DNA of 64,000 nucleotides from an uncultured Chryseobacterium sp. Its GTDB lineage: Bacteria; Bacteroidota; Bacteroidia; Palsa-965. Position numbers and translations under genes: made by a program. This document shows, one piece after another, positions 3,736 to 49,576 of the stretch (position 1 is the stretch's first letter; each line of letters opens with the position of its first letter). The stretch is taken from contig CBIHOC010000028.1 in assembly GCA_966211705.1 (NCBI GenBank), forward strand, positions 13,767 through 77,766. Direction: 5' to 3'. The notes below the pieces were generated by a model. The model searched no databases and was not told where the DNA came from. It saw only the letters and a list, made by a program, of their open reading frames with translations.

Positions 3736-3777
3736 GGTTCTGGGTTCTGGGTTCTGAGTTCTGGGTTCTGGGTTTTT
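3736..3777. repeat. tandem heptamer (GGTTCTG)x5-6, immediately upstream of the hsp20 start codon (CAGAACC on the coding strand)
   Basis: Read directly: ggttctg ggttctg ggttctg agttctg ggttctg ggttttt, ending 9 nt before the ATG at 3726. Confidence 0.9.
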
Positions 3778-3998
3778 GTTCTGTTAGAGGTTGTGCAGGA
3801 TTTGTACCAATAGCCGAAACCGTTGATTTTAATGCCATTGCGGCAGTTTTCCAGGTCTTCTTCCTGTCAATTTTTCCGTTTCACTTCTTTACATGCGACA
3901 AACTTTCCGGTAACCGGGCACGCGAAAATGCGCCGGTGAATTCACGCGGAAGAAAGGATCAGATGATGCAAGCGTGAATTGCGCTTCATGTTCAGCTG

Positions 3999-6142: not shown

Positions 6143-7033
6143 ATGAAGCGTAAACGCATTGCATTCGTCATCAACCCGAACTCGGGCGCCGACCTGAAAA
6201 CAGACCGCATGGAGCTGATCCGCGGCATGCTGAGCGACGCGTACGACAACGAGATCATTCCCTGGAAAAATATCGGCGACCGCGACGCGATTTTCGACCG
6301 TGTGAAGTCGGAGAATTTCGACATCGCGGTGGCGGTGGGCGGCGACGGCACGGTGAGCCAGCTGGCGGATGCGCTGTGCGGGACGAATGTGGCGCTGGGC
6401 ATTGTGCCGTTCGGGTCGGGCAACGGGCTGGCGCGTCACCTCGGTGTGCCGATGGACCGTGCGGCGGCGATGAAGCTGCTGGAAACGGGCGTGGTGAAAA
6501 AGATCGACCGCGGGCGGATCAACGGGCATTCGTTCGTGTGCACGGCCGGTGTCGGCTTCGACGCGCGCATCGGGAAACTTTTCGCGGAAAGCACGAAGCG
6601 CGGCTTTGCGACGTACGCGCAGATGACGATGAAGGAATACAATTCCTACAAGCCGGAACACTACACGATCGAAGTGGACGGAAAAAAATACGAGCGCACC
6701 GCTTTTTTATTGACAGTTGCAAACGCCGGGCAGTACGGCAACAACGCGTGGATCGCGCCGAAAGCGAATGCGTGCGACGGCATCCTGCATCTTTCCCTCC
6801 TCAAGCCGTTCAGCTGGTGGAACATGCCCGGCATCGCCGCCAAAATGTTCGGCAAAACGCTCGACACCTCGCCTTTCCTGGAAACCTTCACCGGCCGGAA
6901 GATCCGCATCCTGCGCAACGAACCCGGCCCCGCACATTACGACGGCGAACCCGCCACAATGGGAACGGAACTGATCGCCACGATCGAACCCGCCGCGCTG
7001 AACGTAATGGTAGCCGAAACATTTACCGGGTAG
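6143..7033 (+). CDS. diacylglycerol/lipid kinase family protein (YegS/DgkA-like)
   Basis: MKRKRIAFVINPNSGA...AVGGDGTV...GIVPFGSGNGLARHLG is the DAGK catalytic domain. Confidence 0.8.
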   Translation: MKRKRIAFVINPNSGADLKTDRMELIRGMLSDAYDNEIIPWKNIGDRDAIFDRVKSENFDIAVAVGGDGTVSQLADALCGTNVALGIVPFGSGNGLARHLGVPMDRAAAMKLLETGVVKKIDRGRINGHSFVCTAGVGFDARIGKLFAESTKRGFATYAQMTMKEYNSYKPEHYTIEVDGKKYERTAFLLTVANAGQYGNNAWIAPKANACDGILHLSLLKPFSWWNMPGIAAKMFGKTLDTSPFLETFTGRKIRILRNEPGPAHYDGEPATMGTELIATIEPAALNVMVAETFTG

Positions 7034-7100
7034 CCACAGATTGCACAGATTTCACAGATGGATTTTTCAAATTAATCTGTGAAATCTGTGCAATCTGTGG
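7034..7100. terminator. 26-bp perfect inverted repeat hairpin between convergent genes
   Basis: CCACAGATTGCACAGATTTCACAGAT - loop - ATCTGTGAAATCTGTGCAATCTGTGG. The arms are themselves built of CACAGAT-like heptamers. Confidence 0.6.
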
Positions 7101-7113
7101 CTGTAATCTGTGC

Positions 7114-9351: not shown

Positions 9352-9475
9352 GGGGTAAATGTTTATGCGAAAGTACGATGTTCAAAGATTCAAACGTCCC
9401 GGGTACTCGGGACTATTCAAAATTCAAAAATTGAACATTCAGAGATACACTCGATGATCCGAATTTTTGAATCTT

Positions 9476-10036
9476 TCAGAGTACCCGGCAGATTTTGACG
9501 AAGCGTTTCGGGTAAGCGGAATTGTAATAATCGGTAATGACCACGCCGGGGTGTTTTTTCGAAGAAGAAGAGTGAATGAACTTCACGGGCTGCCCGGGAT
9601 CGGAAATGATGATGCCGACATGGCCGACGCTTTTGTCGTTCGCGTGCGTGCCGCGGAAGAGGATGATGTCGCCTTTGCGGCATTCGCCGAGTGAGACTTC
9701 TTTCCCGAGGTTCACATAATCTTTCGAGGAGCGGGGAATGCTGTAGCCGTAATGTTTGAACACGAACCACGTGAAGCCGGAGCAGTCGAATCCGCTGGCG
9801 GGAGAGCAGCAGCCGTATTTGTAAGGCGTGCCGAGGAACGTATGCGCGTATTGCACGACGCTGTCGCCGATTGGATTGACAAGGGCGATCGTGTCGGGGA
9901 GCATCGCCGTTTCAGCAGGGATTTCCGGGGCCGCGTGAACAGCCGGCAAAACCGTGCGCGGGACAATGTGCCGGGCGAAAGCGTGGTAAGCGCCGGTGAG
10001 CACGAGCAAAAGAGAGATGGCGATCAGTCGTTTCAT
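9476..10036 (-). CDS. NlpC/P60 (C40) family peptidase
   Basis: GTPYKYGCCSPASGFDCSGFTWFVF...HVGII carries the Cys-His catalytic core and a signal peptide. Its ATG overlaps the upstream gene's stop as ATGA. Confidence 0.85.
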   Translation of the reverse strand: MKRLIAISLLLVLTGAYHAFARHIVPRTVLPAVHAAPEIPAETAMLPDTIALVNPIGDSVVQYAHTFLGTPYKYGCCSPASGFDCSGFTWFVFKHYGYSIPRSSKDYVNLGKEVSLGECRKGDIILFRGTHANDKSVGHVGIIISDPGQPVKFIHSSSSKKHPGVVITDYYNSAYPKRFVKICRVL

Positions 10037-11404: not shown

Positions 11405-11440
11405 GGAAATCCCGTTCCGAGCAGTCGAGACGGGATTTTT
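11405..11440 (+). terminator. rho-independent terminator after the tRNA pair
   Basis: AAATCCCGTTCCGAGCAGTCGAGACGGGATTTTTCATTT. Confidence 0.6.
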
Positions 11441-11504
11441 CATTTACAATTTACGAGGTACGATTGGGGATCGCGTACTTTTACCCCGGTTCAACCCTAC
11501 TTTT

Positions 11505-11578
11505 GCAAATCGTAAATCATACCTCGTAAATCATACCTCGTAAATCGTACCTCGTAAATTGTAAATCGTAATTCGTAA
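11505..11578. repeat. degenerate tandem array of about 14-nt unit TCGTAAATCATACC directly upstream of smpB
   Basis: tcgtaaatcatacc tcgtaaatcatacc tcgtaaatcgtacc tcgtaaattgtaaa tcgtaattcgtaaattcc. A related copy lies at 21470-21510 upstream of hbd. Confidence 0.85.
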
Positions 11579-11583
11579 ATTCC

Positions 11584-21386: not shown

Positions 21387-21514
21387 ATCGTAATTGTTAG
21401 GCTCAAATATAGGGCGATATGAGAAGTCTATTGTGCATTCCTTTTACCTTTATCCCCCGATCAACTACCCAAATCATACTTCGTACCTCGTAAATCGTAA
21501 ACAATAATTCCCAA

Positions 21515-26038: not shown

Positions 26039-26167
26039 ATGAAAGTTTTGCTTCTTTATACGGCCGCATTCGCCTTAATGTTCGCTACAGCCTGCAACGG
26101 CGGTAAACACGGACGCAAGTCGACCAACAAACATCCCTCCAGCTGCAACTGCGAGCACTTTGAATAG
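26039..26167 (+). CDS. candidate 42-aa Cys/His-rich lipoprotein (below ORF-track cutoff)
   Basis: Translation reads MKVLLLYTAAFALMFATACNGGKHGRKSTNKHPSSCNCEHFE: signal peptide plus lipobox (FATAC), then C/H cluster C-x3-H-x7-H-x3-C-x-C-x-H. Confidence 0.35.
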   Translation: MKVLLLYTAAFALMFATACNGGKHGRKSTNKHPSSCNCEHFE

Positions 26168-26277
26168 AGGTGTTAGGTATTAGGACTTGGACTTAGGACT
26201 TAGGTATTAGGATGGTTGCAGTATAACCTAACACCTAACACCTAACACCTAAGTCCTAAGTCCTAACTCCTAAGTCC
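26168..26277. repeat. imperfect 110-bp palindrome built from TTAGG-like pentamer units, abutting the lolD promoter
   Basis: Left arm GGTGTTAGGTATTAGGACTTGGACTTAGGACTTAGGTATTAGGA, loop TGGTTGCAGTATAA, right arm CCTAACACCTAACACCTAACACCTAAGTCCTAAGTCCTAACTCCTAAGTCCTA. A second family member lies at 40021-40130. Confidence 0.9.
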
Positions 26278-26285
26278 TATCTTTG
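26278..26285 (+). promoter_or_regulatory. -7 box TATCTTTG only 5 nt upstream of the lolD ATG (predicts a leaderless transcript)
   Basis: tatctttgcggccATG. Established Bacteroidota sigma-A -7 consensus is TAnnTTTG, with the TSS about 6-7 nt downstream. Confidence 0.4.
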
Positions 26286-26290
26286 CGGCC

Positions 26291-26947
26291 ATGTCACTTA
26301 TTTCCGCTACGAATATTACGAAGTCATATGGCGCGTTGCAAGTGCTGCGCGGGATCAATTTAGAGATCGCGAAAAGTGAGATCGTTTCCATCGTGGGCGC
26401 TTCCGGCGCGGGGAAAACGACGTTGCTCACCATCCTCGGCACGCTCGACCGGGCCGACGGCGGCCAGCTCATCATCGACAACCAGGATATTTCACTGCTC
26501 AGCACGCGCCAGCTGGCGGCATTCCGCAACAGCCGCATCGGGTTCGTGTTCCAGTTCCATCACCTGCTCCCGGAATTCACCGCCGTGGAGAATGTCTGCA
26601 TGCCCGCATTCATCGCCGGCAAATCGAAGGCCGATGCGGAAAAACGCGCAACGGAATTGCTGGGCCTGCTCGGACTTTCGGAACGCCTCACGCACAAGCC
26701 CGCACAGCTTTCCGGCGGCGAGCAGCAGCGCGTGGCCGTAGCGCGGGCCCTGGTGAACGACCCGGCGGTGATCTTCGCCGACGAGCCTTCCGGGAACCTC
26801 GATTCCGCGACGTCGAAAAGTCTTCACGAATTGTTCTTCACGCTCCGCAAAGAGCTGGGACAAACGTTCGTCATCGTCACGCATAATGAAGAACTGGCCG
26901 CGATGGCGGACAGGAAGCTGACGATCAAAGATGGCGTGGTAGCCTGA
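26291..26947 (+). CDS. lolD: ABC transporter ATP-binding protein, LolD/MacB-type
   Basis: Walker [10 protein letters not shown], signature LSGGEQQR, Walker B VIFADEP. Aligns with LolD from its first residues. Confidence 0.8.
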
Positions 26948-28693: not shown

Positions 28694-29773
28694 TTACCCG
28701 AACAGCTCCACTTCCGTCGCGCCGAAACCGTAGCGCTGGTACGACGCGTCGTGGAAACGGATGCCTTTGTAGGTCGACAGGATGCGCCGCACTTCCTGTT
28801 TCAGCCTGCCGTTGCCGACGCCGTGGATGAACACGATGCGCTGCATACGCGCCGCGATCGCCGCGTCGAGCTCCTCCATCACTTTTTTCAGCTGCACGTC
28901 CATCAGTTGCGCATTGCCCAGGCCCGACCAGTTGTCCATCAATTCCTCGATGTGCAGGTCGATCTCCTTGTGCAGCTCCTGGTTCTTCCGCGCCGGGACG
29001 GATGTTTTTTTGCCGGTCAGCTGCTTCTCCTTCGCTTCCAGCATGCGGCGGATGTCGTCGTTGCTGATGAACGGGCGCTCCGTTTCACCCGGAAGCTCAT
29101 CCTGCAGGATCTCGATCTCCGCCACGTATGCGCGTTTGCCCGTCAGCAGGTCGGCCGTGTAGGTCGCGTCCTTGAAAAATTTCACGCCCTTCAGCTTCAG
29201 CTGGTCCGAAATCGGCGCGCGGTGCACATAACTTTCATCGCTGAAAAAAAGAAGGTCCGTTTTCACCGTTCCCCACTCGTCGATCTGCTGCGGCGTAAGC
29301 GTTTCCACCTCCGCATGCCTGCGCGGACCGAGCGCGCCCGACTGGATGCAGGTCCATTCCCGCCCGTCTTTCAGCGAAAGCGTGTAAAAAATATCGTAAT
29401 CCGTATGGTTATAAAAAACAAGATCGATCTCCCCCGCCGACGGAAACGCCTGGTGCCGCGGAATGAACGCAAGATAAATGCCGTCCGCCACACGCTCGTT
29501 AAACCCCGAAGGAGCCGTCAAATATTTTTCACCTGCAGTTTCCTTTTTCCCCCGTTCCCCGTTCCCTCGTCCCCCGTCCCTTCGTCCCTCGTCCCCTTCG
29601 TCCCTCGCCCCCTTCTCAATCGGCGCCGCCGGCACCAGCTGGTTCAGCGGGTACGGATACTCGAAGCCGCCTTCGATCTCCACCATCGCCATGCCGTTGC
29701 CCACGATCTTCGTTACCGTGCCTTCGCCGGTTTCGTTGAGGAATCGCACTTTGTCGCCTTTGCGGAACTGCAT
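28694..29773 (-). CDS. Smr domain-containing protein (DUF2027-like)
   Basis: C-terminal Smr domain KEIDLHIEEL...RIVFIHGVGNGRLKQEVRRIL. Start set at MQFRKGDKV. An internal low-complexity Gly/Arg/Asp linker is encoded by CGTCCCT heptamer repeats. Confidence 0.7.
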   Translation of the reverse strand: MQFRKGDKVRFLNETGEGTVTKIVGNGMAMVEIEGGFEYPYPLNQLVPAAPIEKGARDEGDEGRRDGGRGNGERGKKETAGEKYLTAPSGFNERVADGIYLAFIPRHQAFPSAGEIDLVFYNHTDYDIFYTLSLKDGREWTCIQSGALGPRRHAEVETLTPQQIDEWGTVKTDLLFFSDESYVHRAPISDQLKLKGVKFFKDATYTADLLTGKRAYVAEIEILQDELPGETERPFISNDDIRRMLEAKEKQLTGKKTSVPARKNQELHKEIDLHIEELMDNWSGLGNAQLMDVQLKKVMEELDAAIAARMQRIVFIHGVGNGRLKQEVRRILSTYKGIRFHDASYQRYGFGATEVELFG

Positions 29774-29775
29774 GG

Positions 29776-29880
29776 GGTAATGTTCGTTGTTTGTTGTTTG
29801 TTGTTTGATCGCTTGTTGTTTGTCGTTTGCTATTTGTTGTTTGACAGTTTGATCGTTTGCCAGTTTGTAGTTTGTCACTT
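29776..29880. repeat. tandem (TTGTTTG)-type heptamers directly upstream of the Smr gene start (CAAACAA on the coding strand)
   Basis: ttgtttgttgtttgttgtttgatcgcttgttgtttgtcgtttgctatttgttgtttgacagtttgatcgtttgccagtttgtagtttgtc. Confidence 0.85.
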
Positions 29881-32763: not shown

Positions 32764-32855
32764 AGATGTGCTAATGTGCCGAAATGCCGATGTGCCGATT
32801 TATTTTCCGGGAATGCGTCGATCATGCTTCCAAAATTCATCGGCATTTCGGCACA

Positions 32856-33869
32856 TCAGAAAACAACCGCCACCGTACAATTCCCCCAGCTGTGCGGATC
32901 GCCGTCATCGAATTCCTGCGTCAAATAGGTTTTCGAAAATTCGAAACGCAATTTTTTCCACGCAACAGAAGCGCCGGCGGTGGAGCGAAAAACGAGACGC
33001 TTCACATCCTGCGTTGGAATGACGTACGCGTTTTCCCTGTTGAACAATCCGCCCTGCAAGGTTGCATTGTAGGCCACGCCGTAAGCTTCCGACCGCGCGA
33101 AGAACCAGAAGCGGAAACGTTTCGTATAGCCCGGCGCGCTGAAATACGGATCCATTTCCCCCAGCCGCACCTGCAATCCCGCGCCTCCGTTGGTAAACAG
33201 CGTCCCGGCTTTCAGCATCCCGTACCCCGCCGCATCGAAGTACGAAGTGGTGATCAATCCTTTTTCGAGCTTCAGCGAATAGTTCACGATCACATCGTTC
33301 GAAACCTGGAACTGCCAGCCTTGCGGGAGGCTGTTGTTGAGCCAGAGGTGCAGCGTGGTCTGCGTCTGCTCGCAAACCGCGCAGGGACCGATGCCGCCCA
33401 GGCCGAGCTCCGAAAGCAGGCGCACCCGTTTTTCACGCACCGTCGACGTGCGCCCGAAACCGAGAAAAATGATCCCCGCAAACGGGCGGTCACCGAAATG
33501 GATCACGTCGTCGTCGAGGTTTTTCGGCGTGTAACAATCCTGGTTGTAGGAAACGGTGAAACCCGCGTCGCTTTCGCCATCCAGCTTCGGCAGCAGGCGG
33601 GTGAACGGGTTCTTCCGCGACACCGGGAACAAAACTTCGATGCGCGTGCCCTGCGTGTAATAATGGTCCGTGGTGCTCATCACGTCGTTGTCGTAGCTGA
33701 TCTTCCACGCGTGACGGAACACGGTTGCGCTGTCCTGCGCAGGTAAGGTTACGGGGAGACTAATGGCCAGGAGAAAAATACGGATCACCCGAAGCGGATT
33801 TCGGATGAAAGTACAAATTGTCGCCCACGTGCCGCGCGGGTATCGAGTAGCGGGACAAACGATGGACAC
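32856..33869 (-). CDS. lipid A deacylase LpxR family protein (DUF2219), paralog 1
   Basis: SYDNDVMSTTDHYYTQGTRIE... beta-barrel. 38% or more identity to the neighbouring paralog by eye. Confidence 0.6.
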   Translation of the reverse strand: MSIVCPATRYPRGTWATICTFIRNPLRVIRIFLLAISLPVTLPAQDSATVFRHAWKISYDNDVMSTTDHYYTQGTRIEVLFPVSRKNPFTRLLPKLDGESDAGFTVSYNQDCYTPKNLDDDVIHFGDRPFAGIIFLGFGRTSTVREKRVRLLSELGLGGIGPCAVCEQTQTTLHLWLNNSLPQGWQFQVSNDVIVNYSLKLEKGLITTSYFDAAGYGMLKAGTLFTNGGAGLQVRLGEMDPYFSAPGYTKRFRFWFFARSEAYGVAYNATLQGGLFNRENAYVIPTQDVKRLVFRSTAGASVAWKKLRFEFSKTYLTQEFDDGDPHSWGNCTVAVVF

Positions 33870-33920
33870 AAATTCTACCCAATACCCGCTACCCGATACT
33901 CGATACCCGATACCCGCTAC

Positions 33921-34853
33921 CTAAAAATACACGGTTATGTTGAAATGTCCCCAGCCGTGGGAAAATCCGCCACGGAATTCGGGGGTGATGTGGACTTTGG
34001 TGTATTCGAGGCGTATCCGTTTCCACGCGAGCACAACGCCGCCGTTCGTGCGGATCAGCACGCGTTTGATGTCGGCGGCGGGAATTGTGTAAATGTTTTC
34101 CCTGCTGAGCAGTGCGCCCTGCAAGGTGCCGTTGTAGGCGATGCCGTAGACGGCGGCCTGCCCGGAAAGCCAGAGGCGGAGCTGTTTCGTGTAGCCGGGC
34201 GGAAAAAAATACGGCTCCAGCAGCCCGATGCGGATCATCATGCCTGAGCCGGCGTTGTTGAACACGGTTCCGATCTCCATGCTTCCGAACGCCGTCACGT
34301 CGAACAAAGGCGAAATGAGCAATCCTTTCTCCAGCCGCACGCTGTAGTCCAGCAGCAGGCCGTTCCGCATTTGGTTCTGCCATCCGTGCGGCAGGTCGTT
34401 CCGGAACAGGCGGTGGATCTCGTTCTGGGCCTGCTCGCACGCCGCGCACCGCCCGATGCCGCCCGCACCGAGCTCCGTGATCAGCCGCAGGTTCTTCGCC
34501 GGCAGGCCGGAGCTGCGGATGAACGTGGCGTAAATGAGCCCCGCAAACGGCCGGTCGCCAGCAAGCACTTTATCCTCCCGCACGCTCGTGGGCGTGTAGC
34601 AACGCTGGTTTACCGACACGCCGTAATATTCGTCCATGCTCCCCGGCAGCCGCACGAGCAGCGCGCCCATCGGATTTTTCTTCCCCGGCCGGAACGTCAT
34701 GCCGATGCGTATGCCCTGCGAGTAATAACGGTCCTCCTGGTCCATCACGTCGTTATCGTAATGGATGTCCACCGACCGCCGGAAGATCCCGGTCGAATCC
34801 TGCGCAAACGAAAAAACAGGAATCACCAACAGCACAAAAACCAACCGCAACAT
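33921..34853 (-). CDS. lipid A deacylase LpxR family protein (DUF2219), paralog 2
   Basis: Signal peptide MLRLVFVLLVIPVFSFAQ, then DIHYDNDVMDQEDRYYSQGIRIG... Confidence 0.6.
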   Translation of the reverse strand: MLRLVFVLLVIPVFSFAQDSTGIFRRSVDIHYDNDVMDQEDRYYSQGIRIGMTFRPGKKNPMGALLVRLPGSMDEYYGVSVNQRCYTPTSVREDKVLAGDRPFAGLIYATFIRSSGLPAKNLRLITELGAGGIGRCAACEQAQNEIHRLFRNDLPHGWQNQMRNGLLLDYSVRLEKGLLISPLFDVTAFGSMEIGTVFNNAGSGMMIRIGLLEPYFFPPGYTKQLRLWLSGQAAVYGIAYNGTLQGALLSRENIYTIPAADIKRVLIRTNGGVVLAWKRIRLEYTKVHITPEFRGGFSHGWGHFNITVYF

Positions 34854-34920: not shown

Positions 34921-35040
34921 CATTGACAACCGCGCACGTCCACAACCGACAACTGACAAACCGACAACAGATCACCGACAACAGACCACCGACAGCCGAT
35001 CACCGACAACAGACCACCGACAACTGCACACCGCTCATCA
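34921..35040. repeat. tandem CCGACAAC(AGAYCA) repeats upstream of the VOC gene
   Basis: caaccgacaactgacaaaccgacaacagatcaccgacaacagaccaccgacagccgatcaccgacaacagaccaccgacaactgcacacc. Confidence 0.85.
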
Positions 35041-35100: not shown

Positions 35101-35484
35101 ATGGACGCAACCGTCAACACGCTCAACTGGTTCGAAGTTCCCGTCGCGGATTTCGAACGTGCAAAAAAATTTTACGAAACGATCTTCGGCATCGAGCTGC
35201 AAGTGATGGATTTCCAGGGCTTCAAAATGGGCATGTTCCCGTCAACGCCCGGCGACGGCAAGCTTTCCGGGGCCATCGTGCATGGAGAATGGTACAAGCC
35301 GTCAGCAGAAGGAACGCTCGTTTATTTCAACGGTAATCCCGACCTGCAGGTGGCGCTCGACAAAATTGAAAAGGCGGGCGGAAAAGTGCTCCAGCCGAAA
35401 ACGCAGATCACGCCGGAATACGGTTACATGGCCATCTTTATGGATACGGAAGGCAACCGGGTGGCGCTGCATTCGCAGGAGTAA
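35101..35484 (+). CDS. VOC/glyoxalase family protein
   Basis: NWFEVPVADFERAKKFYETIFG...GNRVALHS. Confidence 0.8.
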   Translation: MDATVNTLNWFEVPVADFERAKKFYETIFGIELQVMDFQGFKMGMFPSTPGDGKLSGAIVHGEWYKPSAEGTLVYFNGNPDLQVALDKIEKAGGKVLQPKTQITPEYGYMAIFMDTEGNRVALHSQE

Positions 35485-35487
35485 ATG

Positions 35488-35670
35488 ATGTGCGGATATG
35501 CAGATGTGCAGATGCGAGGATTCGCGCTGACCAGCCGCACAAATGTTAACCACGAGGCACGGAGACACGGGGAAAAGGGATGTGCTGAAATGCTGATGTG
35601 TCGAAATGCCGATGCGCACGAACAGCCGCACAAATGTTAACCACGGAGGCACGGAGACACGGGGGAATGT
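35488..35670. repeat. two tandem units of about 92 bp, each a GATGTGC/ATGCCGAT oligo-repeat block plus a conserved 41-nt core
   Basis: Core CAGCCGCACAAATGTTAACCACG(A/G)AGGCACGGAGACACGGGG at 35531-35571 and 35623-35665. Confidence 0.85.
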
Positions 35671-35723
35671 GTAATTTTCCTTCGTGACTTTGTGCCTTCG
35701 TGGCATTTTTATTTTTCGCCCCG

Positions 35724-36848: not shown

Positions 36849-39800
36849 TCACTGAATCTTCTCACACTTCCTCCCCTCACCGACCAAAATCGACATGATC
36901 GCCGTCCGTATCCCCATCTTCGCCAGCTTGTTCACTTCCGCATCGGGATAAACGCGGTTCGACAAAAACACGTAAACGATTCCCGTCTCAGGGTCGGCCC
37001 ATGTTTGTGTGCCGGTGAAGCCCTGGTGGCCGAAGCTCGCGGGTGAGATGCTGTCGCAGGCCGGGTTGGGCTTGTCTTTGTTCGTCTCGGGCTTGTCGAA
37101 GCCGAGGCCGCGGCGGTTGCCGTTGTATTGTGCGCGGGTGAACTCGTTCACGGTTGCTTCTTTGAAGTAACGTTTGCCGCCGTACGTGCCGCCGTTGAGG
37201 AACAGCTGCATCATCACGGCCACGTCGTTCGCGTTGCTGAACACGCCGGCATGGCCGCCGATGCCGCCCATCAGCGCGGCGCCCTGGTCGTGCACATCGG
37301 CCTGCAGCTGGCGTTTGCGCCACACTTTATCGTTCTCCGTGGGTGCGCAGCGGGCGCTGGGGAAACGCAGGCGCGGCTGGTAGCCCATCGTGGGCAGACC
37401 GAGCGGTGCGTAGAAGGTGGTCATCGCGTGCGCGCTGAGCAGCGTGTCGGCGTCTTCCTCGATGATCTCCTTCAGGTAATAATAGCCGAGATCGCTGTAG
37501 AGGAACTTGTGCTCGCTGCTCACCGGGCTGTCGTTGATGCGCTTGTAGATGGTGTCGGTGTAGCCTTTGCGGACGAACATGCCGGGGGCGACGTACATCG
37601 GGAATGAATCGCTGAACGATTTCTGGAACATGCCTTTCTTCAGCGTGCCGTCTTTTTCCATCGTGCGCAGGTAGAACGGGATCCACGCCTGCAGCCCGGC
37701 CTGGTGCGCCAGCATTTCGCGGAGGATGATGCTGTCCTTGTTGGTTCCTTTCACCATCGGCAGGTACGTGCCGAGCCGCCCGTCCACGTTCAGCTTGTTC
37801 TCGTCCACCAGCTGCATCACGCACGGCACCGTGGCCACGATCTTCGTGATCGACGCGATGTCGTAGAGATCGAGGTTGCTGACGCGGCGCTTTTTTTCGT
37901 AGGTGAAATGACCGTACGATTTATTCAGGAACACTTTCCCGTCTTTCGCCGCAAACACCTGGCAGCCGGGATACGCATGTTCCTTAATTCCCTCCGCTAC
38001 GATGGAATCGATGCGCTCCAACGCTTCGCGGCTGAAACCGATCTCTTCGGGCATGGTGTATTTGAAACGCGTCGCGGGCGGCGTGGAAATGCCGCTTCCC
38101 GCCGGCCACATGTTCGTCGACACCGGCAAGCGCCCGGAAGCGCTCACGCCGCCGAACAAAACCTGCGCGGACAGATCTTCGCAATACTCCTCGCTCTGGT
38201 ACGAAAGCAGCACCGCGGAACAACGCTCGTGCCCGGGCAGCGCATTCAACGCGTACGGCGGACCGAACACGTCGAGCACCACTGTTTTCCCCGTAGCCAG
38301 CACAAGGTTCAGCAGTTCACGGTCGATATCTTCGAGCGCCGCATCTTTCACCGAACGCTGCGCCAGCTTGTGCATGCTGAGGATGATCACGTTGAAATCC
38401 TTCAATTTTTTCATCAGCGTGTCTTTCTCCGCCTGTTTCGCATCGCGCCTGATGCTGAACGGAGCCACGTTCGTGTAAACGCCGAGCCGGTCCTGGAAAA
38501 CCGTCGAGCCGCGCACGCCGATGGCCACGGAAGCGATCTTCAGCGTGTCGGGACGCATGAACGGGATGAGGGAATTGTCGTTCTTCAGCAGCGTTGCGGA
38601 ATGTTCGGCAATGTCGCGGCAGAGCAAATTCGCTTCCTGCGTGTTCAGGTCGCGGTAAAGATTTTTCACCTTTACCAGCTTCTGCTTGTCGAGGCCGCAC
38701 CATTTTTTCACCATCAATATTTTCCTGCACCGCGCGTCGATCTCTTCCTGCGTGATCTCGCCTTTCGCGATGGAGGCTTTGATCATTTGCACCGCTTTGG
38801 GAACGTTGCCGGAAAACAGCAGCATGTCGTTGCCCGCGAGCAGGGCTTTGACGTCCACTTCTCCCGGCGCGAAATAATTGCTAACGCCTTTCATGTTCAG
38901 CGCATCGGTGAAAATGAGGCCGCGGAACGAAAGTTTTTCCTTCAGCAATTCCGTCACGACGTTTTTTGAAAGCGTAGTCGGCGTATTCAAAGCTGTATCG
39001 TACGCGGGAATGTTGAGGTGCGCCACCATCATGCTCCCGAGACCGGCATCGATCATGCGTTTGAACGGGTACAGCTCCAGCGAATCGAGGCGCTCTTTCG
39101 TGTGGCTGATGACGGGCAATGTTTTGTGCGAATCGCTGTCGGTGTCGCCGTGGCCGGGAAAATGTTTCCCGCAGGCCAGCACGCCGCCATCCTGCAGGCC
39201 GTTCATGTATAGGATCGCCTTGTCGGCCACGCGGTATTTATCTTCCCCGAACGAGCGCGTGCCGATCACGGGATTTTTCGGGTTGTTGTTCACGTCGGCC
39301 ACCGGTGAAAAGCTCACATGCACGCCGAGGCGTTTGCATTCCCGCGCCATTTCTTTCCCCAGCTCGTAGATCAGCGAATCGTTCTGCATGGCGCCCATCG
39401 TCATCTGCATCGGGAATTCCGGCGTGCTGTCGAGGCGCATGGCCAGCCCCCACTCCGCGTCCATCGCGATGAGCAGCGGCACGGAAGAAAGTTTCTGGTA
39501 TTTGTTCGTGAGGTTCGCCTGCCGCACCGGCCCGCCCTGCATGAAAATGAGGCCGCCGACCTTGTTGTTGCGGATGAGGCTGGTGACTTCTTTAATATGC
39601 GCGGCGTCTTTGTTCGACCACGCCGCCGTCATGAACAGCTGGCCAATGCGTTCTTCCGGCGTCAATTTGCGCATGATGGAATCCACCCACGCGTCCGCTT
39701 CATGGGCAAAAAACGGCGGGGCCGAAAAGCGTTCGGGCAATTGCGCCGGCGCATCGGGTTCATAATAGCCTGTAGCCGCGGGACTTTGGAGCAGCACGGG

Positions 39801-39851
39801 CACGGGCAGCAACAGCAAAAAGCAAATAAGGGTCAGCGATAATTTTCTCAT
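36849..39851 (-). CDS. glycoside hydrolase family 3 (NagZ-like beta-N-acetylhexosaminidase) fused to a serine hydrolase/beta-lactamase-family domain
   Basis: N-terminal half has GH3 motifs (KHFPGHGDTDSDSH, FTDALNMKG). C-terminal half has a class C/DD-peptidase-like S-x-x-K (ASITK) plus YSD/GHQG motifs. About 1000 aa. Confidence 0.8.
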   Translation of the reverse strand: MRKLSLTLICFLLLLPVPVLLQSPAATGYYEPDAPAQLPERFSAPPFFAHEADAWVDSIMRKLTPEERIGQLFMTAAWSNKDAAHIKEVTSLIRNNKVGGLIFMQGGPVRQANLTNKYQKLSSVPLLIAMDAEWGLAMRLDSTPEFPMQMTMGAMQNDSLIYELGKEMARECKRLGVHVSFSPVADVNNNPKNPVIGTRSFGEDKYRVADKAILYMNGLQDGGVLACGKHFPGHGDTDSDSHKTLPVISHTKERLDSLELYPFKRMIDAGLGSMMVAHLNIPAYDTALNTPTTLSKNVVTELLKEKLSFRGLIFTDALNMKGVSNYFAPGEVDVKALLAGNDMLLFSGNVPKAVQMIKASIAKGEITQEEIDARCRKILMVKKWCGLDKQKLVKVKNLYRDLNTQEANLLCRDIAEHSATLLKNDNSLIPFMRPDTLKIASVAIGVRGSTVFQDRLGVYTNVAPFSIRRDAKQAEKDTLMKKLKDFNVIILSMHKLAQRSVKDAALEDIDRELLNLVLATGKTVVLDVFGPPYALNALPGHERCSAVLLSYQSEEYCEDLSAQVLFGGVSASGRLPVSTNMWPAGSGISTPPATRFKYTMPEEIGFSREALERIDSIVAEGIKEHAYPGCQVFAAKDGKVFLNKSYGHFTYEKKRRVSNLDLYDIASITKIVATVPCVMQLVDENKLNVDGRLGTYLPMVKGTNKDSIILREMLAHQAGLQAWIPFYLRTMEKDGTLKKGMFQKSFSDSFPMYVAPGMFVRKGYTDTIYKRINDSPVSSEHKFLYSDLGYYYLKEIIEEDADTLLSAHAMTTFYAPLGLPTMGYQPRLRFPSARCAPTENDKVWRKRQLQADVHDQGAALMGGIGGHAGVFSNANDVAVMMQLFLNGGTYGGKRYFKEATVNEFTRAQYNGNRRGLGFDKPETNKDKPNPACDSISPASFGHQGFTGTQTWADPETGIVYVFLSNRVYPDAEVNKLAKMGIRTAIMSILVGEGRKCEKIQ

Positions 39852-40020
39852 CTCGGGAGGGCTGGGAAGCGCTAAAACAAAGGATTTCAACGGAAATTTA
39901 AAAGTAAAACAAAGGATATGCCGCTTTCCCGTACAAGAAGCGACTTTTCAACAAATTAATTGTTGATGAAGCGGAGAATTAAGAATAGTTAACAGGTGTG
40001 GGGAAATTTTGAATAAGCGT

Positions 40021-40130
40021 GGAGAAAGGTATTAGGTGTTAGGGCTTAGGTATTAGGATTTAGGAATTAGGAATAAATATAACACCCCAGCCTAATACCT
40101 AAGTCCTAAGACCTAAGACCTAAGTCCTAT
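40021..40130. repeat. second TTAGG-unit palindrome, abutting the mutL promoter
   Basis: GTATTAGGTGTTAGGGCTTAGGTATTAGGATTTAGGAATTAGGAAT - loop - CCAGCCTAATACCTAAGTCCTAAGACCTAAGACCTAAGTCCTA. Confidence 0.9.
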
Positions 40131-40134
40131 TACT

Positions 40135-40142
40135 TACCTTTG
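40135..40142 (+). promoter_or_regulatory. -7 box TACCTTTG, 23 nt upstream of the mutL ATG
   Basis: Matches TAnnTTTG, immediately downstream of the palindrome. Confidence 0.4.
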
Positions 40143-40165: not shown

Positions 40166-42064
40166 ATGCCCGATATCATTCGCCTCCTTCCTGATTCCGT
40201 CGCCAACCAGATCGCAGCCGGCGAGGTCGTCCAGCGGCCTGCTTCTGCCGTGAAGGAATTGCTCGAGAATGCGGTGGATGCGGGCGCGACGTCGGTCAAG
40301 CTCATCATCAAAGACGCAGGCCGCACGCTCATCCAGGTGGTCGACGACGGCTGCGGCATGTCGGACACCGACGCGCGCCTTTCCTTCGAACGCCACGCCA
40401 CGTCGAAGATCCGTTCCGCCGACGATCTCTTTAAAATTAAGACCATGGGCTTCCGCGGCGAAGCGCTCGCTTCCATCGCGGCGATTGCGCAGGTGGAATT
40501 GAAAACGAAACGCCCGGAAGACGAAGCGGGTACCTGCATCTCCATCGACGGCAGCGTGTTCCAATCGCAGGAGCCGTGCGCGATGGCGACGGGAACTTCC
40601 TTCTCCATCAAAAATCTTTTTTACAACGTTCCCGCCCGCCGCAACTTCCTGAAGTCCGACGCGGTGGAATTCCGCCACATCGTGGAAGAGTTCGAGCGCG
40701 TGGCGTTCGCGCATCCGCACATCTCGTTTTCACTGGTGCACAACGGGAACGAAGTGTTCAACGTGGCGAAAGGAAATTCCGCCGACTGGCAGGCCGGGCT
40801 GCGCCAGCGCATCGTGGCGTTATATGGCAACCCATACAACCAGCGCCTCGTGCCGGTGGAGGAATCCACGGACATCGTGCGCGTGACGGGATACGTGGGC
40901 AAGCCGGAATTCGCGAAGCGCACGCGGGGCGAACAATTCTTTTTCCTCAACAAGCGCTTCATCAAAAGCGGCTATCTCCATCATGCCGTGCAGGCCGCGT
41001 TCGAACAGTTGCTCCCGCCCGACAGCCACGCGACGTATTTCCTCTTCCTCGACGTCGACCCGAAAACGATCGACGTGAACATTCACCCCACAAAAACGGA
41101 AGTGAAGTTCGAGGACGAGCGTTCCGTTTATGCCATTCTCCGCTCCTCGGTGAAACGCGCGCTGGGGCAATACAACATCGCGCCCACGCTTGATTTCGAG
41201 CAGGAGATGAGCATGGAAATTCCGTGGAGGCCGAACATGAATCCCGTTTCCGCGCCGGGCATTACCGTTGACCCGAACTACAACCCGTTTGCATCGAACA
41301 ACGCCGACACGGCCCCGGGAAATTCGTGGGGCGGAACGAAATCGCCGCTTCCTTCCCGCGAAAAAGCCAACACGGACAACTGGCAGGAAATGTTCGCGTC
41401 GCACATGCAGTCCATGCAGGGCGACGAACCCGCCACGCACGAAAGCCGCCAGCAGGTGCTCCACAGCGACTTCGAGACCGCCGGGGAACACAAAGGCAAC
41501 ACGTCCGGCATCTGGCAATTGCACGAGCGTTACATCCTCACGCCCATCAAGTCGGGCATTCTTGTGATCGACCAGCAGCGCGCGCACGAGCGCATTCTTT
41601 TCGAACGTTACCTCCGCGCGCTCGAGCAGCGCCAGTCGAACACGCAGCAACTGCTGTTCCCCGAAACGCTGGAATTTTCCACGGCAGATACGGCTTTGCT
41701 CACGCCACTGCTCGACGACATCAACGCGCTGGGCTTCGACCTGCAGCCGTTCGGCAGCAACACGTTCGTCGTGCACGGCGTTCCGGCGGGAACGGAAGAG
41801 ACCGGCTGCGCGCAGTTGCTCGAAGGCATGCTGGAATTGTACAAGGAGAACCAGCAGGAGCTGCACCTCCAGCCAAGGGAAAACATTGCCCGCTCGCTTG
41901 CCCGCCAGGCCGCGGTAAAGCCGGGGCGTTCGCTTACGATGCAGGAAATGCAGGCGCTGGCGGATGAACTGTTCGCGTGTGAAACGCCTTCGCACGCGCC
42001 CGACGGAAAACCCGCGTTCATCAACTTCCCGATCGCGGAGCTGGATAAGCGGTTCAAGCGGTGA
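40166..42064 (+). CDS. mutL: DNA mismatch repair protein MutL
   Basis: MPDIIRLLPDSVANQIAAGEVVQRPASAVKELLENAVDAGAT... GHKL ATPase domain. C-terminal dimerisation region. Confidence 0.95.
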   Translation: MPDIIRLLPDSVANQIAAGEVVQRPASAVKELLENAVDAGATSVKLIIKDAGRTLIQVVDDGCGMSDTDARLSFERHATSKIRSADDLFKIKTMGFRGEALASIAAIAQVELKTKRPEDEAGTCISIDGSVFQSQEPCAMATGTSFSIKNLFYNVPARRNFLKSDAVEFRHIVEEFERVAFAHPHISFSLVHNGNEVFNVAKGNSADWQAGLRQRIVALYGNPYNQRLVPVEESTDIVRVTGYVGKPEFAKRTRGEQFFFLNKRFIKSGYLHHAVQAAFEQLLPPDSHATYFLFLDVDPKTIDVNIHPTKTEVKFEDERSVYAILRSSVKRALGQYNIAPTLDFEQEMSMEIPWRPNMNPVSAPGITVDPNYNPFASNNADTAPGNSWGGTKSPLPSREKANTDNWQEMFASHMQSMQGDEPATHESRQQVLHSDFETAGEHKGNTSGIWQLHERYILTPIKSGILVIDQQRAHERILFERYLRALEQRQSNTQQLLFPETLEFSTADTALLTPLLDDINALGFDLQPFGSNTFVVHGVPAGTEETGCAQLLEGMLELYKENQQELHLQPRENIARSLARQAAVKPGRSLTMQEMQALADELFACETPSHAPDGKPAFINFPIAELDKRFKR

Positions 42065-42446
42065 TCAAAAAATTCAAGATTCAAAATCACTGTTGTCCGG
42101 GAAACTTTTTGCTACGACAAAGTCACCGTGTTGATCGAAAAAGCGAGGCCACGAAGGCACGAAGACACTAAGGAAAGGCAGGAAGTCAATGGAAAAATTC
42201 TTTGTGAAACTTTGCGTCTTTCTGCCTTTGTGGCCTCGAAGCCCTGTTCGGGCAGAAAGTCCTGTAACGCTGTAAAATGAATCATTCCGGAGCATTTGTC
42301 AATTTTATCCCGGACAACAATGATTCAAAATTCAAGATTCAAATTGTCACTGATGGTGAGTAACGAATACCCGATCACCAAATCTTTGAATCTTGAATAG
42401 TCCCGAGTACTCGGGACGCTTGAATCTTTAACTTTACGGGAAATTC

Positions 42447-44022: not shown

Positions 44023-45189
44023 TTGACCGAAAACACGATACATACTGATCCCTCTGCCGAAGTTCCCGCGAAGAAAACCGTGCCGCGCAAAAAGCTGGGC
44101 TGGTTCAACCGCGTGGTGCTCGGCCTGAACTGGTTTGCGATCGCCGGGCTTGCGCTTGCGTGCCTGGCACCGCTGGTGAGCCCCGCGGTATTCTGGCCGC
44201 TCGCGTTCTTCGGCCTGCTGTTTCCCGCGTTCGTAGTGCTCAACCTGCTTTTCCTCGTGTGGTGGTCGGTGCGGAAACGCCGGCAATTCGTTTACACGCT
44301 CGCCATATTGCTCCTCAGCCTGCCTTATTTCGGAACGCAGCTGCGCATCCGCTTCGGCGGTCCCGGTCCCGCGCCGGAAAAATCGTTCACCGCGATGAGC
44401 TACAACGTCAAGCTGTTCGACCTGTACAACTGGAGCGGAAACAAGCAGACCCGCGCGAAAATGTTCGACATCATCCACGGTGAAAAACCGGACATTCTCT
44501 GCCTGCAGGAATTTTTCAACGAAGACTCCGGCGATTTCCGCAACCTCGATTCCCTGCGCAGCCTGCTGCAGCTCCCGCACGTGCACAAAGAATACACCAT
44601 CACGCTCCGCAAAACCGATCACTGGGGACTCGCCACGTTCAGCCGCTATCCCATCATCGGCCAGGGCAAGATCGTTTTCAACAACCGCAACAACAACATG
44701 TGCATCTACACCGACATCGTGATCGGGAAAGACACGTTGCGCGTGTACAACATGCATTTACAGTCGGTGAATTTCGGATACGCCGATTACAAATTCATTT
44801 CCCAGCTGAAAAGCGGTGAAGAAGCCGAAGATGAAGTGGAGAACACAAAAAACATTTTACGCCGCATGAAACGCGCCTCCACCAAACGCGCCCGCCAGTC
44901 GGAGTCCATCGCCACGCACATCGCCGCCTGCCCCTACCCCGTCATCGTCTGCGGCGATTTCAACGACACGCCCGTTTCCTATTGCTACCGCACCATTTCC
45001 GGCGGCCTCGACGATGCGTTCATGGAATCCGGCAGCGGCTTCGGCAAAACATTCATCAACCCGTTCCCCGTGCCGCGCATCGACTACATCCTGCACAGCC
45101 CGGCGTTCAAGTCGTGGGAATTCAAAACCGTCGAAGCGGATGGCTTGTCGGATCATTACCCGGTGGTGTGTAAGATTTCTAAACAGTGA
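44023..45189 (+). CDS. endonuclease/exonuclease/phosphatase (EEP) family membrane protein
   Basis: N-terminal TM helices, then MSYNVKLF...ILCLQEF...SDHYPV EEP motifs. Confidence 0.75.
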   Translation: MTENTIHTDPSAEVPAKKTVPRKKLGWFNRVVLGLNWFAIAGLALACLAPLVSPAVFWPLAFFGLLFPAFVVLNLLFLVWWSVRKRRQFVYTLAILLLSLPYFGTQLRIRFGGPGPAPEKSFTAMSYNVKLFDLYNWSGNKQTRAKMFDIIHGEKPDILCLQEFFNEDSGDFRNLDSLRSLLQLPHVHKEYTITLRKTDHWGLATFSRYPIIGQGKIVFNNRNNNMCIYTDIVIGKDTLRVYNMHLQSVNFGYADYKFISQLKSGEEAEDEVENTKNILRRMKRASTKRARQSESIATHIAACPYPVIVCGDFNDTPVSYCYRTISGGLDDAFMESGSGFGKTFINPFPVPRIDYILHSPAFKSWEFKTVEADGLSDHYPVVCKISKQ

Positions 45190-45264
45190 TCGGTTGTCCG
45201 GTCTTCGGTTATTACCATACCGACAACTGACAACCGACAACCTTTGACAACCTTAGACAACCGA
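45176..45264. repeat. 17-bp perfect inverted repeat (AACAGTGATCGGTTGTC / GACAACCGATCACTGTT) flanking GACAAC repeats between convergent genes
   Basis: Read directly. It overlaps the EEP stop codon. The loop contains ACCGACAACTGACAACCGACAACCTTTGACAACCTTAGACAACC. Confidence 0.85.
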
Positions 45265-45272
45265 TCACTGTT

Positions 45273-46307
45273 CTACGGCAGAATAGCCGGCCGCTGTGTA
45301 ATCTCATGATAGCAGATCACATCACCTTTGCAGAAGTAATGCGCGACAAGGCTTTTACGGGATGACGTTTCATTCGTGACGGGCTCGCCTCCGTGTAAAA
45401 GATTTGCATGCCACACCAGCAGGTCGCCTTTTTTCGCCAGGAAAATTTCTTTCTCCGGTTTTTTCTCCTTCACGATCTCCGCGATCTTCTGCTCGTAGTT
45501 CCCGTAGAGGTCGTCGCCCACGGCGAATGCGGAGCTGCTGTGCGGGAAATCCTCGCCCATCACGTACGGGAGCTTGTGACTTCCCACATAATAATGAAGC
45601 GGGCCGCTGTCTGAAGAAATATCTTCCAGCGCCATCCACGTCGCCACGAGGTAGCCGGGCGGCTCGGTGGTCATGTGGATGCTGTCGGAATGCGTTTTCT
45701 GGCGACTGCCTTTCAGGAAGCTGATCGTCTGGAACGGAAGCACCGGGCGGCCGAGCGTGAAGCTGAGAAATTCGTTCAGGCGTTCATCATTCACGATGGT
45801 TTTGATCGCGGGGGAATGTTTCCACGCATTCATCACGCGCGAATTCGTGTAGTCGAAGTCCACCGTTTTTGTGTCGATGAGCTGCTGAAGATCGGCGTTG
45901 ATTTTATCGCACGTGGCGGCATCCGCAAATCCTTCCAGGATCATGTAGCCTTTTTCCGGCCAGGCCAGCAACGCTTCCCGCCACTGCGCCGGGAATTTTT
46001 GCAGGCCGGGATGCTCCTTCAGCTGCGCCGCGCCGCCGGGCTGATCGAGCCAGGGAATATCGCTGCCGGGCTTTGCGATGTCTTTGTGCGCAAGCGGCCC
46101 GACGACAGTACGGTTCACGCCGAAACGGTCGTAGAGCGGCTTATTGCCTTTCAGCTTGCCGTAATGCCGCACGTTGTACAGCACGTGCAGGAGGCGCAGG
46201 CGGCGTAAGGTGGACCAGTAATGTTTGAAGAGGCTCAAAATTGAAAATTCAGGATTCCAAAGATTCAAAGATTTTTGCTGGGAAGATAGGTTGCCTGTTA
46301 TTTTCAT
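45273..46307 (-). CDS. phytanoyl-CoA dioxygenase (PhyH) family protein
   Basis: Fe(II)/2OG dioxygenase HxD...H motifs (HSDSIHM..., WHANLLHGG). Confidence 0.7.
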   Translation of the reverse strand: MKITGNLSSQQKSLNLWNPEFSILSLFKHYWSTLRRLRLLHVLYNVRHYGKLKGNKPLYDRFGVNRTVVGPLAHKDIAKPGSDIPWLDQPGGAAQLKEHPGLQKFPAQWREALLAWPEKGYMILEGFADAATCDKINADLQQLIDTKTVDFDYTNSRVMNAWKHSPAIKTIVNDERLNEFLSFTLGRPVLPFQTISFLKGSRQKTHSDSIHMTTEPPGYLVATWMALEDISSDSGPLHYYVGSHKLPYVMGEDFPHSSSAFAVGDDLYGNYEQKIAEIVKEKKPEKEIFLAKKGDLLVWHANLLHGGEPVTNETSSRKSLVAHYFCKGDVICYHEITQRPAILP

Positions 46308-49556: not shown

Positions 49557-49576
49557 ACAGCCTTTTAGCCGGACCC

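Follow-up and report, generated by a model that had tools for sequence, protein, structure and literature searches.

The stretch of DNA analysed here, called the window, is a 64-kb stretch from an uncultured Chryseobacterium sp. (GenBank assembly GCA_966211705.1, contig CBIHOC010000028.1, positions 13,767 to 77,766), and it carries two imperfect palindromes, one upstream of lolD and the other upstream of mutL. The identity of both genes is confirmed by Pfam, which finds an ABC_tran ATPase domain in the lolD product and DNA_mis_repair together with MutL_C in the mutL product. A preliminary description of this DNA had reported the two palindromes as members of a promoter-associated repeat family, and both could be confirmed in the sequence, at 26168-26277 and 40027-40130. 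The parts of the two elements and their immediate neighbors are as follows (nt, nucleotides; all coordinates count from the first letter of the window).

26039 to 26167, plus strand: 42-amino-acid lipoprotein-like open reading frame (ORF; MKVLLLYTAAFALMFATAC...), upstream of the lolD element
26168 to 26211, plus strand: left arm of the lolD element, six NNTTAGG heptamers, G-rich on the plus strand
26212 to 26226, no strand: loop of the lolD element, 15 nt, ATGGTTGCAGTATAA
26227 to 26277, plus strand: right arm of the lolD element, seven CCTAANN heptamers, C-rich on the lolD sense strand
26278 to 26285, plus strand: -7-type box TATCTTTG, 0-nt gap after the lolD element, 5 nt before the ATG
36849 to 39848, minus strand: GH3/beta-lactamase fusion gene, divergent from mutL
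40027 to 40071, plus strand: left arm of the mutL element, AGGTATT AGGTGTT AGGGCTT AGGTATT AGGATTT AGGAATT AGG
40072 to 40090, no strand: loop of the mutL element, 19 nt, AATAAATATAACACCCCAG
40091 to 40130, plus strand: right arm of the mutL element, CCTAATA CCTAAGT CCTAAGA CCTAAGA CCTAAGT CCTAT
40135 to 40142, plus strand: -7-type box TACCTTTG, 4-nt gap after the mutL element, 23 nt before the ATG

At lolD, the left arm reads AGG TGTTAGG TATTAGG ACTTGG ACTTAGG ACTTAGG TATTAGG, and the right arm consists of CCTAACA three times, CCTAAGT twice, then CCTAACT, CCTAAGT and CC; the start codon is the ATG at 26291. The first base of the element directly follows the TAG stop (26165-26167) of the small lipoprotein-like ORF. 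This ORF is kept, and duplicated, upstream of lolD in the related contigs L202 and L203 (labels of this kind denote comparison contigs from metagenomes or metagenome-assembled genomes, MAGs), so the lolD element can be said to sit between a stop codon and a promoter box. It is missing from the public annotation of the contig. The box TATCTTTG is found with the same spacing in L207 and as the variant TATCTTTA in L205. At mutL, whose ATG lies at 40166, the arms are 90% complementary across 31 nt, and the element is located between divergent promoters (GH3 and mutL), with no upstream gene end. A conserved block, GACTTTTCAACAAnnTAnnTGTTRATGA with GACAAAG..TGCCGTTT upstream of it, lies at 39930-39975 between the GH3/beta-lactamase gene and the mutL palindrome, and is also present at orthologous positions in L002, L004, L005, L006, L008, L013 and L014. 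The block probably serves the GH3/beta-lactamase gene as promoter and leader on the minus strand; a small ORF within it was considered and rejected, as by eye neither frames nor peptides are conserved and the window copy ends after 8 codons.

The nearest genomes, all with a MutL identity of 78% or less, are MAGs of uncultured Bacteroidia/Bacteroidota, and an exact-protein look-up of the window MutL gave zero matches. The look-up of LolD returned a sole match, an identical 11-kb metagenome contig (L001). This is an independent contig, 100% identical over 10.8 kb, and the elements are therefore not an artefact of a single assembly.

Both elements are built in the same way, an NNTTAGG array facing a CCTAANN array. 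Tandem Repeats Finder (TRF), which was used to call all tandem arrays, gives a repeat period of 7 with 4.6-6.9 copies per arm, and TTAGG/CCTAA is the constant core of the heptamer. Of the pentamer/heptamer units proposed earlier, the heptamer holds and the pentamer does not. The comparison with telomeres is lost as well, both because the period is 7, not 5, and because the telomeric matches are unrelated eukaryotic sequences: in a metagenome scan with the pattern (CCTAANN)x3-CCTAA, about two thirds of the matches listed (at least 120) contain CCCTAAA eukaryotic telomere units. Among the scan matches listed, none came from the window's species, and only the L119 array matched; the matches listed that lack telomere units are NNTTAGG-type arrays, single or as inverted pairs (L144, L169, L112), from many unrelated bacteria of 37-69% GC. 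In one of these contigs, the Bacteroidetes-like L129, a TACCTTTG box lies six nt after (CCTAATT)4.

In the two elements, 15 and 19 nt separate arms that are 81-90% complementary, and each pair can form a hairpin of about 40 base pairs. Folding energies as single-stranded DNA are -27.3 kcal/mol (lolD element) and -25.4 kcal/mol (mutL element), with z = -6.35 and -6.87 and 0 of 200 shuffles as good, which bears out the strong hairpin potential first reported. Nor are the elements random sequence, as had also been argued: CCTAANNCCTAA at one mismatch or fewer has 20 occurrences where 1.4 would be expected, and all of them fall within the two elements. Searches for a more specific RNA structure were negative. 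Rfam 15 returned only miRNA-precursor hairpin models on the elements, at 14-31 bits against gathering scores of 43-230; a terminator scan called neither element and found no enrichment in the window (24 against 26.9 expected); and G-U pairs and minimum free energy per strand gave no signal of strand-specific structure for either window element. The provision of stop codons in six frames was rejected as the purpose of the TTAGG/CCTAA units, as many other units lack a stop triplet.

The G-rich arm might form a G-quadruplex or other non-B DNA. The left arms have at least six GG runs at 7-nt spacing, and the GGGAATC and GGGGAYT heptamers of Xanthomonas and Nostoc form G-quadruplexes in vitro (PMC4692102). 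However, GGG runs are absent from the units of both elements, and GG runs would allow a two-tetrad structure at best. The complementary arm competes for pairing, and most other units in the window (such as CGTAAAT, ACAAACA and ATTCAAA) have no G-runs, which leaves this explanation scarcely credible.

A second possibility, raised in the preliminary description, is a non-autonomous transposon that inserts upstream of promoters, resembling MITEs (miniature inverted-repeat transposable elements) or REPINs. The two elements do share a TATAAC loop/right-arm junction and the outer ends AGGTRTTAGG ... CCTAAGTCCTAT, as related copies would. Outside the TATAAC junction, however, the loops are unrelated, and mean column identity is 73% (both elements, both orientations). 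The flanks (AATAG and TCTTT at lolD, GAGAA and TTACT at mutL) contain no direct repeat, so that target-site duplications are absent. The window region is ordinary core chromosome, and a Pfam scan of 47 window proteins found no transposase, integrase, reverse transcriptase or Y1 (RAYT-type) transposase. Repetitive extragenic palindromic (REP) sequences and REPINs are likewise imperfect palindromes dispersed between genes, about 100 nt long, composed of two inverted halves and frequently located at the ends of genes. REPs are not known to contain internal tandem heptamers, occur as near-identical copies and are associated with a RAYT gene; here the copies are diverged, the arms are repeat arrays and no RAYT was found among the proteins scanned.

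The two elements are not alone in the window. About 19 arrays of period 7 or 8, with about ten different units, occupy roughly a third of its intergenic regions, and a period scan gave 11 period-7 segments against 0 for periods 5, 6 and 9. Several units recur within the 64 kb (TTAGG at 2 loci, GATGTGC at 3-4, CGTAAAT at 2, ACCGACA at 2). The other arrays and palindromes are the following.

3736 to 3774, minus strand: (CAGAACC)5.6 array, ends 9 nt short of the hsp20 ATG, a gap that holds no -7 box
7032 to 7102, no strand: near-perfect palindrome of CACAGATTG units between convergent genes
9384 to 9441 and 42060 to 42430: ATTCAAA arrays, two loci
11432 to 11583, plus strand: ATTTACG/CGTAAAT palindrome, right arm reaches the smpB start
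21461 to 21512: CGTAAAT array, second locus of the unit family of the smpB palindrome
29547 to 29615: TCCCCCG heptamer array within the DUF2027-Smr coding region
29781 to 29875, minus strand: (ACAAACA)-type array, fills the spacer between co-oriented genes and ends 8 nt before the Smr ATG
32765 to 32858, minus strand: third palindrome, 8-mers GATGTGCC/GGCACATC, same architecture as the lolD element
32765 to 32858, 35483 to 35614 and 60054 to 60131: GATGTGCC-type 8-mers (GATGTGC family), three loci
33876 to 33921: TACCCGA array between two LpxR genes
34942 to 35033, plus strand: ACCGACA/ACAGATC array in a divergent intergenic region
45219 to 45262: ACCGACA array inside the 45180-45275 palindrome, second locus of the 34942-35033 unit
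60054 to 60131, plus strand: CATCCGCA 8-mer array, reverse complement of the GATGTGC family

The third palindrome (units TGATGTGCC GAAATGCC ... GGCACATC GGCATTTC GGCACATT AGCACATC) begins on the TGA that closes an LpxR gene and stops 1 nt short of TACCTTTG (32763-32756), a box that itself lies 4 nt before the ATG (32751) of a GT4 glycosyltransferase gene. The TTAGG elements are related copies, as first described, but not the only members of their kind. At smpB, two tRNA genes and a hairpin that resembles a terminator and carries a T-run (11408-11440) come before the palindrome; the loop of the palindrome contains a TACTTTTG box, and the right arm would be smpB 5' untranslated region (UTR). No -7 box separates the 29781-29875 array from the Smr ATG. 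Dispersal and adjacency to promoter boxes stand, with the third case at the GT4 gene and the comparisons below (L002, L004 and L205; 16 boxes against 4), while specificity for promoters or for TTAGG does not: about ten other units are found at starts without a box, in 5'UTRs, at stops, in convergent spacers and in a coding region.

Some further features of these loci may be recorded. The TCCCCCG array encodes a low-complexity G/R/D/E-rich linker, GARDEGDEGRRDGGRGNGERG. The TACCCGA array parts tandem LpxR (lipid A deacylase family) paralogs at 32856-34853. At 35530-35700, a sequence of about 40 nt (GCCGCACAAATGTTAACCACGRAGGCACGGAGACACGGGG) is present twice in direct orientation, at a spacing of about 95 nt, and interspersed with the GATGTGC octamer arrays; a strong hairpin comes next, and the flanking genes are a glyoxalase gene and an ORF without a Pfam match. 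The octamer family GGCACGAA/GACACGAA is also found downstream of lolD in L202 and L203. Downstream of mutL, at 42060-42430, there is a complex palindromic region of about 370 nt with ATTCAAA heptamers, CACGAAGG octamers and a GTCCCGAGTACTCGGGAC hairpin, and a 49-nt piece of it is 92% complementary to a copy at 9384-9432. The window also holds four tandem paralogous genes at 49529-57853, about 60-80% alike in DNA in places; two of the four were scanned with Pfam and show TPR and PD40 domains, one of them also OmpA.

Comparison of orthologous sites reveals how such elements change. The mutL -7 box and downstream leader are kept in 6 orthologous loci at about the same distance from the ATG, with an exact TAnnTTTG in four and TAACTTTA and TACATTTG in the other two. 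In L004, a palindrome ends 8 nt before this box, with one arm of GGGTATT GAGTATT GAGTATT GGGTATT and an exact mirror as the other. Both arms have changed relative to the window, from TATTAGG/CCTAATA to TATTGGG and TATTGAG facing CCCAATA and CTCAATA. The L002 site belongs to the L004 unit family and its left arm has decayed. At lolD, L205 has a perfect 31-nt mirrored palindrome (AGTTGTT AGTTTGG AGTTTTT ACTTCGG AGA) with a 104-nt loop, which is preceded by a terminator-like hairpin with a T-run and ends exactly on TATCTTTA-CCGCG-ATG, the box lying 5 nt from the ATG. L207 retains only AACTAACAACT, the last 11 nt of the right arm, directly before TATCTTTG, while L202 and L203 carry two non-complementary arrays, (TTCGGAG)n and (CGTAATY)n. 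Arrays also occupy the spacer upstream of a 3-hydroxyacyl-CoA dehydrogenase gene, both in the window and in L202, L203, L205 and L207; in these four relatives they adjoin the box. L202 and L203 are 98.6% identical, and 3 of the 9 small indels between them are unit-length and inside arrays (7, 7 and 8 nt; GGAGTTG, ATTACTT and GCCACGAA). In some related pairs, G-U pairs are numerous on one strand only (17 vs 5, 11 vs 2 and 8 vs 2). The window's own two elements showed no strain variation, L001, the sole second copy, being identical.

Two other observations concern the same relatives. In L203, a palindrome at 3914-4170 has the arms (GGTGATT)11 and (CCAATYA)4 around a 125-nt loop and is followed by TAACTTTG; in L202 (3383-4160) the same palindrome has its loop replaced by 600 nt with a 185-amino-acid ORF without a Pfam match, so that the arms flank a replaceable segment. 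In L011, a more distant relative, the spacer upstream of mutL (about 9700-9950) consists of about four tandem 60-65-nt units (GGTTTTACAGGTTATTTATCCGTCGAAGTCTCTAACGATAAGC...), not heptamers.

These comparisons bear on the transposon hypothesis in both directions. The recurrence of unit families at unlinked loci and the replaceable 125-nt or 600-nt insert between the L202/L203 arms would suit a mobile element, but the same spacers are occupied in long-diverged genomes, and the 11 nt of right arm left in L207 are unlike an empty insertion site. Together with the missing target-site duplications, the unrelated loops and the lack of a transposase among the proteins scanned, this makes the MITE-like proposal very improbable.

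A wider census shows that arrays of this kind are both abundant and oriented. Across the mutL-linked loci of related MAGs (1.26 Mb), TRF found 54 period-7 and 32 period-8 arrays, whereas periods 5, 6, 9 and 10 gave 4, 1, 5 and 2. Of the 118 arrays in the related loci, 105 lie between genes; in many, the first base falls -7 to +2 nt from a stop codon or the last base a few nt from a start codon. Per 100 kb, the window has 30 arrays and the closest lolD relatives have 38, whereas mid-clade genomes have 14-15 and distant Flavobacteriales 2.6, and this fall marks array abundance as specific to the clade. Within 15 nt of a gene end, arrays are G-rich on the sense strand at stop codons (44:7) and C-rich at start codons (19:5), and both window elements obey the same rule. 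The polarity is clear only for arrays abutting gene ends and is not significant with a loose 120-nt limit (p = 0.10 and 0.44). Of 40 adjacent array pairs in the clade, 18 are complementary, with the G-rich arm first in 14 and the C-rich arm first in 3; the polarity rule alone suffices to account for this preference.

The position of the elements relative to promoters must be read against the sigma-A promoter of Bacteroidetes, which has TTTG at -33 and TAnnTTTG at -7, the former about 19-21 nt upstream of the latter. The gaps of 0 nt at lolD and 4 nt at mutL agree with the 0-5 nt given in the preliminary description, as does the occupation of the -33 region: upstream of both boxes that position holds CCTAAGN units and no TTG. 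The arrays would therefore replace the -33 region and leave the -7 box as the only promoter element of lolD and mutL. Transcripts that read in from upstream would form a hairpin of about 40 base pairs whose end falls directly on the T-rich box. The window shows no excess of TAnnTTTG (21 matches, 20.6 expected), and a sigma-70 promoter scan is uninformative for Bacteroidota. Across the related loci, TAnnTTTG boxes within 14 nt of an array end faced outward in 16 cases and inward, as control, in 4; the 16 include orthologous flanks, about 11 being independent. Among the 16 box-adjacent arrays, 13 are C-rich on the box strand.

TAnnTTTG boxes stand only 4-6 nt before the ATG at lolD (26278-26291), at the GT4 gene (32763-32749, minus strand) and at a lipoprotein gene (60172-60188), whose true start is the ATG at 60186, not the TTG at 60177. 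Given the Bacteroidetes -7 position, the mRNAs of these three genes would be leaderless or nearly so, and the spacing suggests that such transcripts may be frequent in this organism. The RNase P RNA gene, too, has a TAnnTTTG box, 1 nt upstream of it (27504-27495, minus strand). This box, TATCTTTG, has a short non-repeat hairpin, CGGCTTTTAGCCG, directly against it (27517-27497, minus strand), after the stop of an outer membrane protein gene, and its T-rich sequence may double as a terminator tail.

Could the heptamers then form a regulatory array, either binding a regulator or tuning promoters that have a -7 box only, in the manner of an UP-like or cruciform element? The C-rich arm adjoins a -7 box at lolD, mutL, GT4, orthologous and other loci, the outward bias and strand preference just described agree with such a role, and so does the lack of a TTG at -33. 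In Nostoc, heptamer deletions near the recO/recF promoters altered the reporter response to LexA and NtcA (bioRxiv 10.1101/2022.06.06.494920). However, the unit differs between orthologous promoters (TTAGG, TTGAG/TTGGG, GGTAATT-type, CTAACAA-type), which argues against the operator array envisaged earlier, and L207 keeps box and spacing without a palindrome. A 7-bp period does not put successive sites on one helix face. Similar arrays occur in 5'UTRs, after stops, between convergent genes and in coding sequence, and adjacency to a box is equally expected if arrays expand up to constrained bases. The promoter-element interpretation is only partly right, and a regulatory array as such appears improbable.

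Taken together, both loci are probably inverted pairs of heptanucleotide simple sequence repeat (SSR) arrays that are driven by slippage and fill unconstrained spacer DNA. On this reading, arrays gain and lose single units by replication slippage, as the unit-length indels in relatives show, and they persist for a long time in the same spacer while the unit drifts in both arms together, as the orthologous sites show. Arm complementarity may arise through inverted duplication or template switching between arms, or may be selected, and units may be homogenized among the loci of one genome by some exchange process. Judging from boundary positions, arrays would expand until they meet constrained nucleotides: at lolD and GT4 they run from the stop codon on the upstream side to the -7 box, at mutL they lie between back-to-back promoters, and at hsp20, Smr and smpB they end at the start codon. 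The placement exactly upstream of a -7 box would then follow from expansion to the first constrained nucleotide, the boundary being equally sharp at stop and start codons. The sense-strand polarity, G-rich after stops and C-rich before starts, is seen both here and in Xanthomonas and Nostoc. On this reading the element is neither a sequence-specific operator nor a transposon, and the best reading of array function, if any, is a structural one.

Several observations weigh against so simple a process. The arms of L004 and L205 mirror each other position by position, variant units included, for which independent slippage is insufficient; template switching or selection for pairing is needed. One unit is found at unlinked loci of one genome and other units at the orthologous sites elsewhere, which requires some process of dispersal or homogenization. 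Persistence in the same spacer across 76% MutL identity, together with the strong polarity, could reflect a selected function. The window's own two elements, moreover, are identical to their sole second copy.

The strongest rival is a selected terminator or insulator hairpin, in which an RNA hairpin stops or stabilizes upstream transcripts and the T-rich -7 box (UAUCUUUG, UACCUUUG) serves as the U-tract, which would make a very compact terminator-promoter module. Two of the three window palindromes span exactly the distance from stop codon to -7 box, nothing else in those spacers is terminator-like, and at the RNase P RNA gene the unrelated hairpin CGGCTTTTAGCCG stands in this position, ahead of the TATCTTTG box. 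The joint change of arms at orthologous sites, the perfect mirrors in L004 and L205 and the one-sided G-U pairs of some related pairs all point the same way, and a role in termination or stability has been proposed for cyanobacterial hairpins of this type (PMC2670836). The mutL element, however, lies between divergent promoters, where there is no upstream gene end to terminate. T-run hairpins already precede the palindromes at 11408-11440 and in L205, so that the palindrome is unneeded there. Both window elements fold equally well on either strand, with few G-U pairs; their stems are long, AT-rich and imperfect at the base, not short and G+C-rich with a U-tract, and neither tail (UAUCUUUG, UAUUACUU) is more than moderately rich in U. 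Loop length varies from 5 to about 125 nt, one loop carrying a 600-nt gene, and many arrays have no partner or one that is not complementary. A selected terminator is accordingly judged unlikely, though less so than the other alternatives.

The reading as slippage-driven SSR arrays finds its closest precedents in known heptamer systems, and the arrays here are a case of that known class, heptameric SSR/STRR-like (short tandemly repeated repetitive) arrays and inverted pairs, in a new lineage and with new units. In Xanthomonas, about 185 GGGAATC arrays per genome have been described, about 90% of them intergenic, with 70-75 inverted pairs (Rehm et al. 2015, PMC4692102). They are positionally conserved between species in 83% of cases, with variable length and preserved pair type, and the G-rich strand coincides with the coding strand when the array follows an ORF and with the non-coding strand when it precedes one (PMC4692102). 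The arrays of the window resemble these in their intergenic 7-nt tandem units, dispersed loci sharing a unit, inverted pairs, conserved positions and polarity. They differ in phylum and units, in having no GGG runs and no G-quadruplex potential, and in their many coexisting unit families, octamers alongside heptamers, in place of one dominant unit. Adjacency to Bacteroidetes-type -7 boxes is not described in Xanthomonas. Density differs as well: about 30 arrays per 100 kb and about a third of intergenic regions correspond, by extrapolation, to more than 1,000 arrays per genome, against about 185.

Cyanobacterial STRR sequences show the same intergenic 7-bp units, few families over many loci, and facing arrays that form hairpins. 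Their units include CCCCAGT, TTGGTCA and CAACAGT, and their hosts are heterocystous cyanobacteria. None of these three units is present in the TRF output of the window, and the host here belongs to the Bacteroidota. STRR hairpins of 7-bp repeats have been described in the hupS-hupL and hoxW upstream regions, near the 3' end of the preceding gene, with proposed roles in transcript stability, termination and translational coupling (PMC2670836). Inverted pairs are reported to be rare in Nostoc (PMC4692102), unlike the 18 complementary pairs among 40 here. Another relative is the TAACTGA direct repeat of Beggiatoaceae, Cyanobacteria and five Bacteroidetes (MacGregor 2015, PMC4679880), which occurs as a rule in 2-6 copies, with inverted pairs in 1 of 170 sets, and has been proposed to act on translation from the 5'UTR (PMC4679880). 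Like the arrays here, TAACTGA repeats are nearly all intergenic, have a fixed orientation to the downstream gene and often lie a few nt from the start codon; other heptamer repeats accompany them in some Bacteroidetes, and their presence varies between close relatives. They differ in having a single unit and essentially no inverted pairs, and in their proposed 5'UTR location: at lolD and mutL the -7 box comes after the array. Heptanucleotides as the most abundant class of long SSRs, possibly through polymerase slippage, go back to Mrazek 2007 as cited in PMC4679880. On balance, the two elements would seem to be the uncultured-Bacteroidia counterpart of the heptameric SSR/STRR arrays of Xanthomonas, heterocystous cyanobacteria and Beggiatoaceae.

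Heptameric repeats have been known from cyanobacteria for decades, and they were recognized in 2007 as an over-represented class of long SSRs in many bacteria (as cited in PMC4679880 and PMC4692102). The present arrays add a very dense case in a third phylum, after cyanobacteria and Xanthomonas. How heptamer units function and spread through genomes is a long-standing question, which the density, the polarity and the joint change of arms reported here all touch. The same polarity relative to genes in Xanthomonas and Nostoc argues for a general cause linked to transcription or translation. A more ambitious and rather doubtful idea is that the arrays constitute a modular, polarity-constrained intergenic system, written, mirrored and homogenized by a dedicated unit-specific factor and acting as cassettes that combine terminator, insulator and promoter spacer, or as supercoil-absorbing cruciforms. 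Were this true, cassettes might include a hairpin joined to a -7 box, and cruciforms would lie between back-to-back promoters such as those of GH3 and mutL. For the promoters of Bacteroidetes, the arrangement at lolD and mutL implies that arrays can replace the whole -33 region. Care must also be taken in annotation, where palindromes next to TAnnTTTG boxes should not be taken for operators or transposons.

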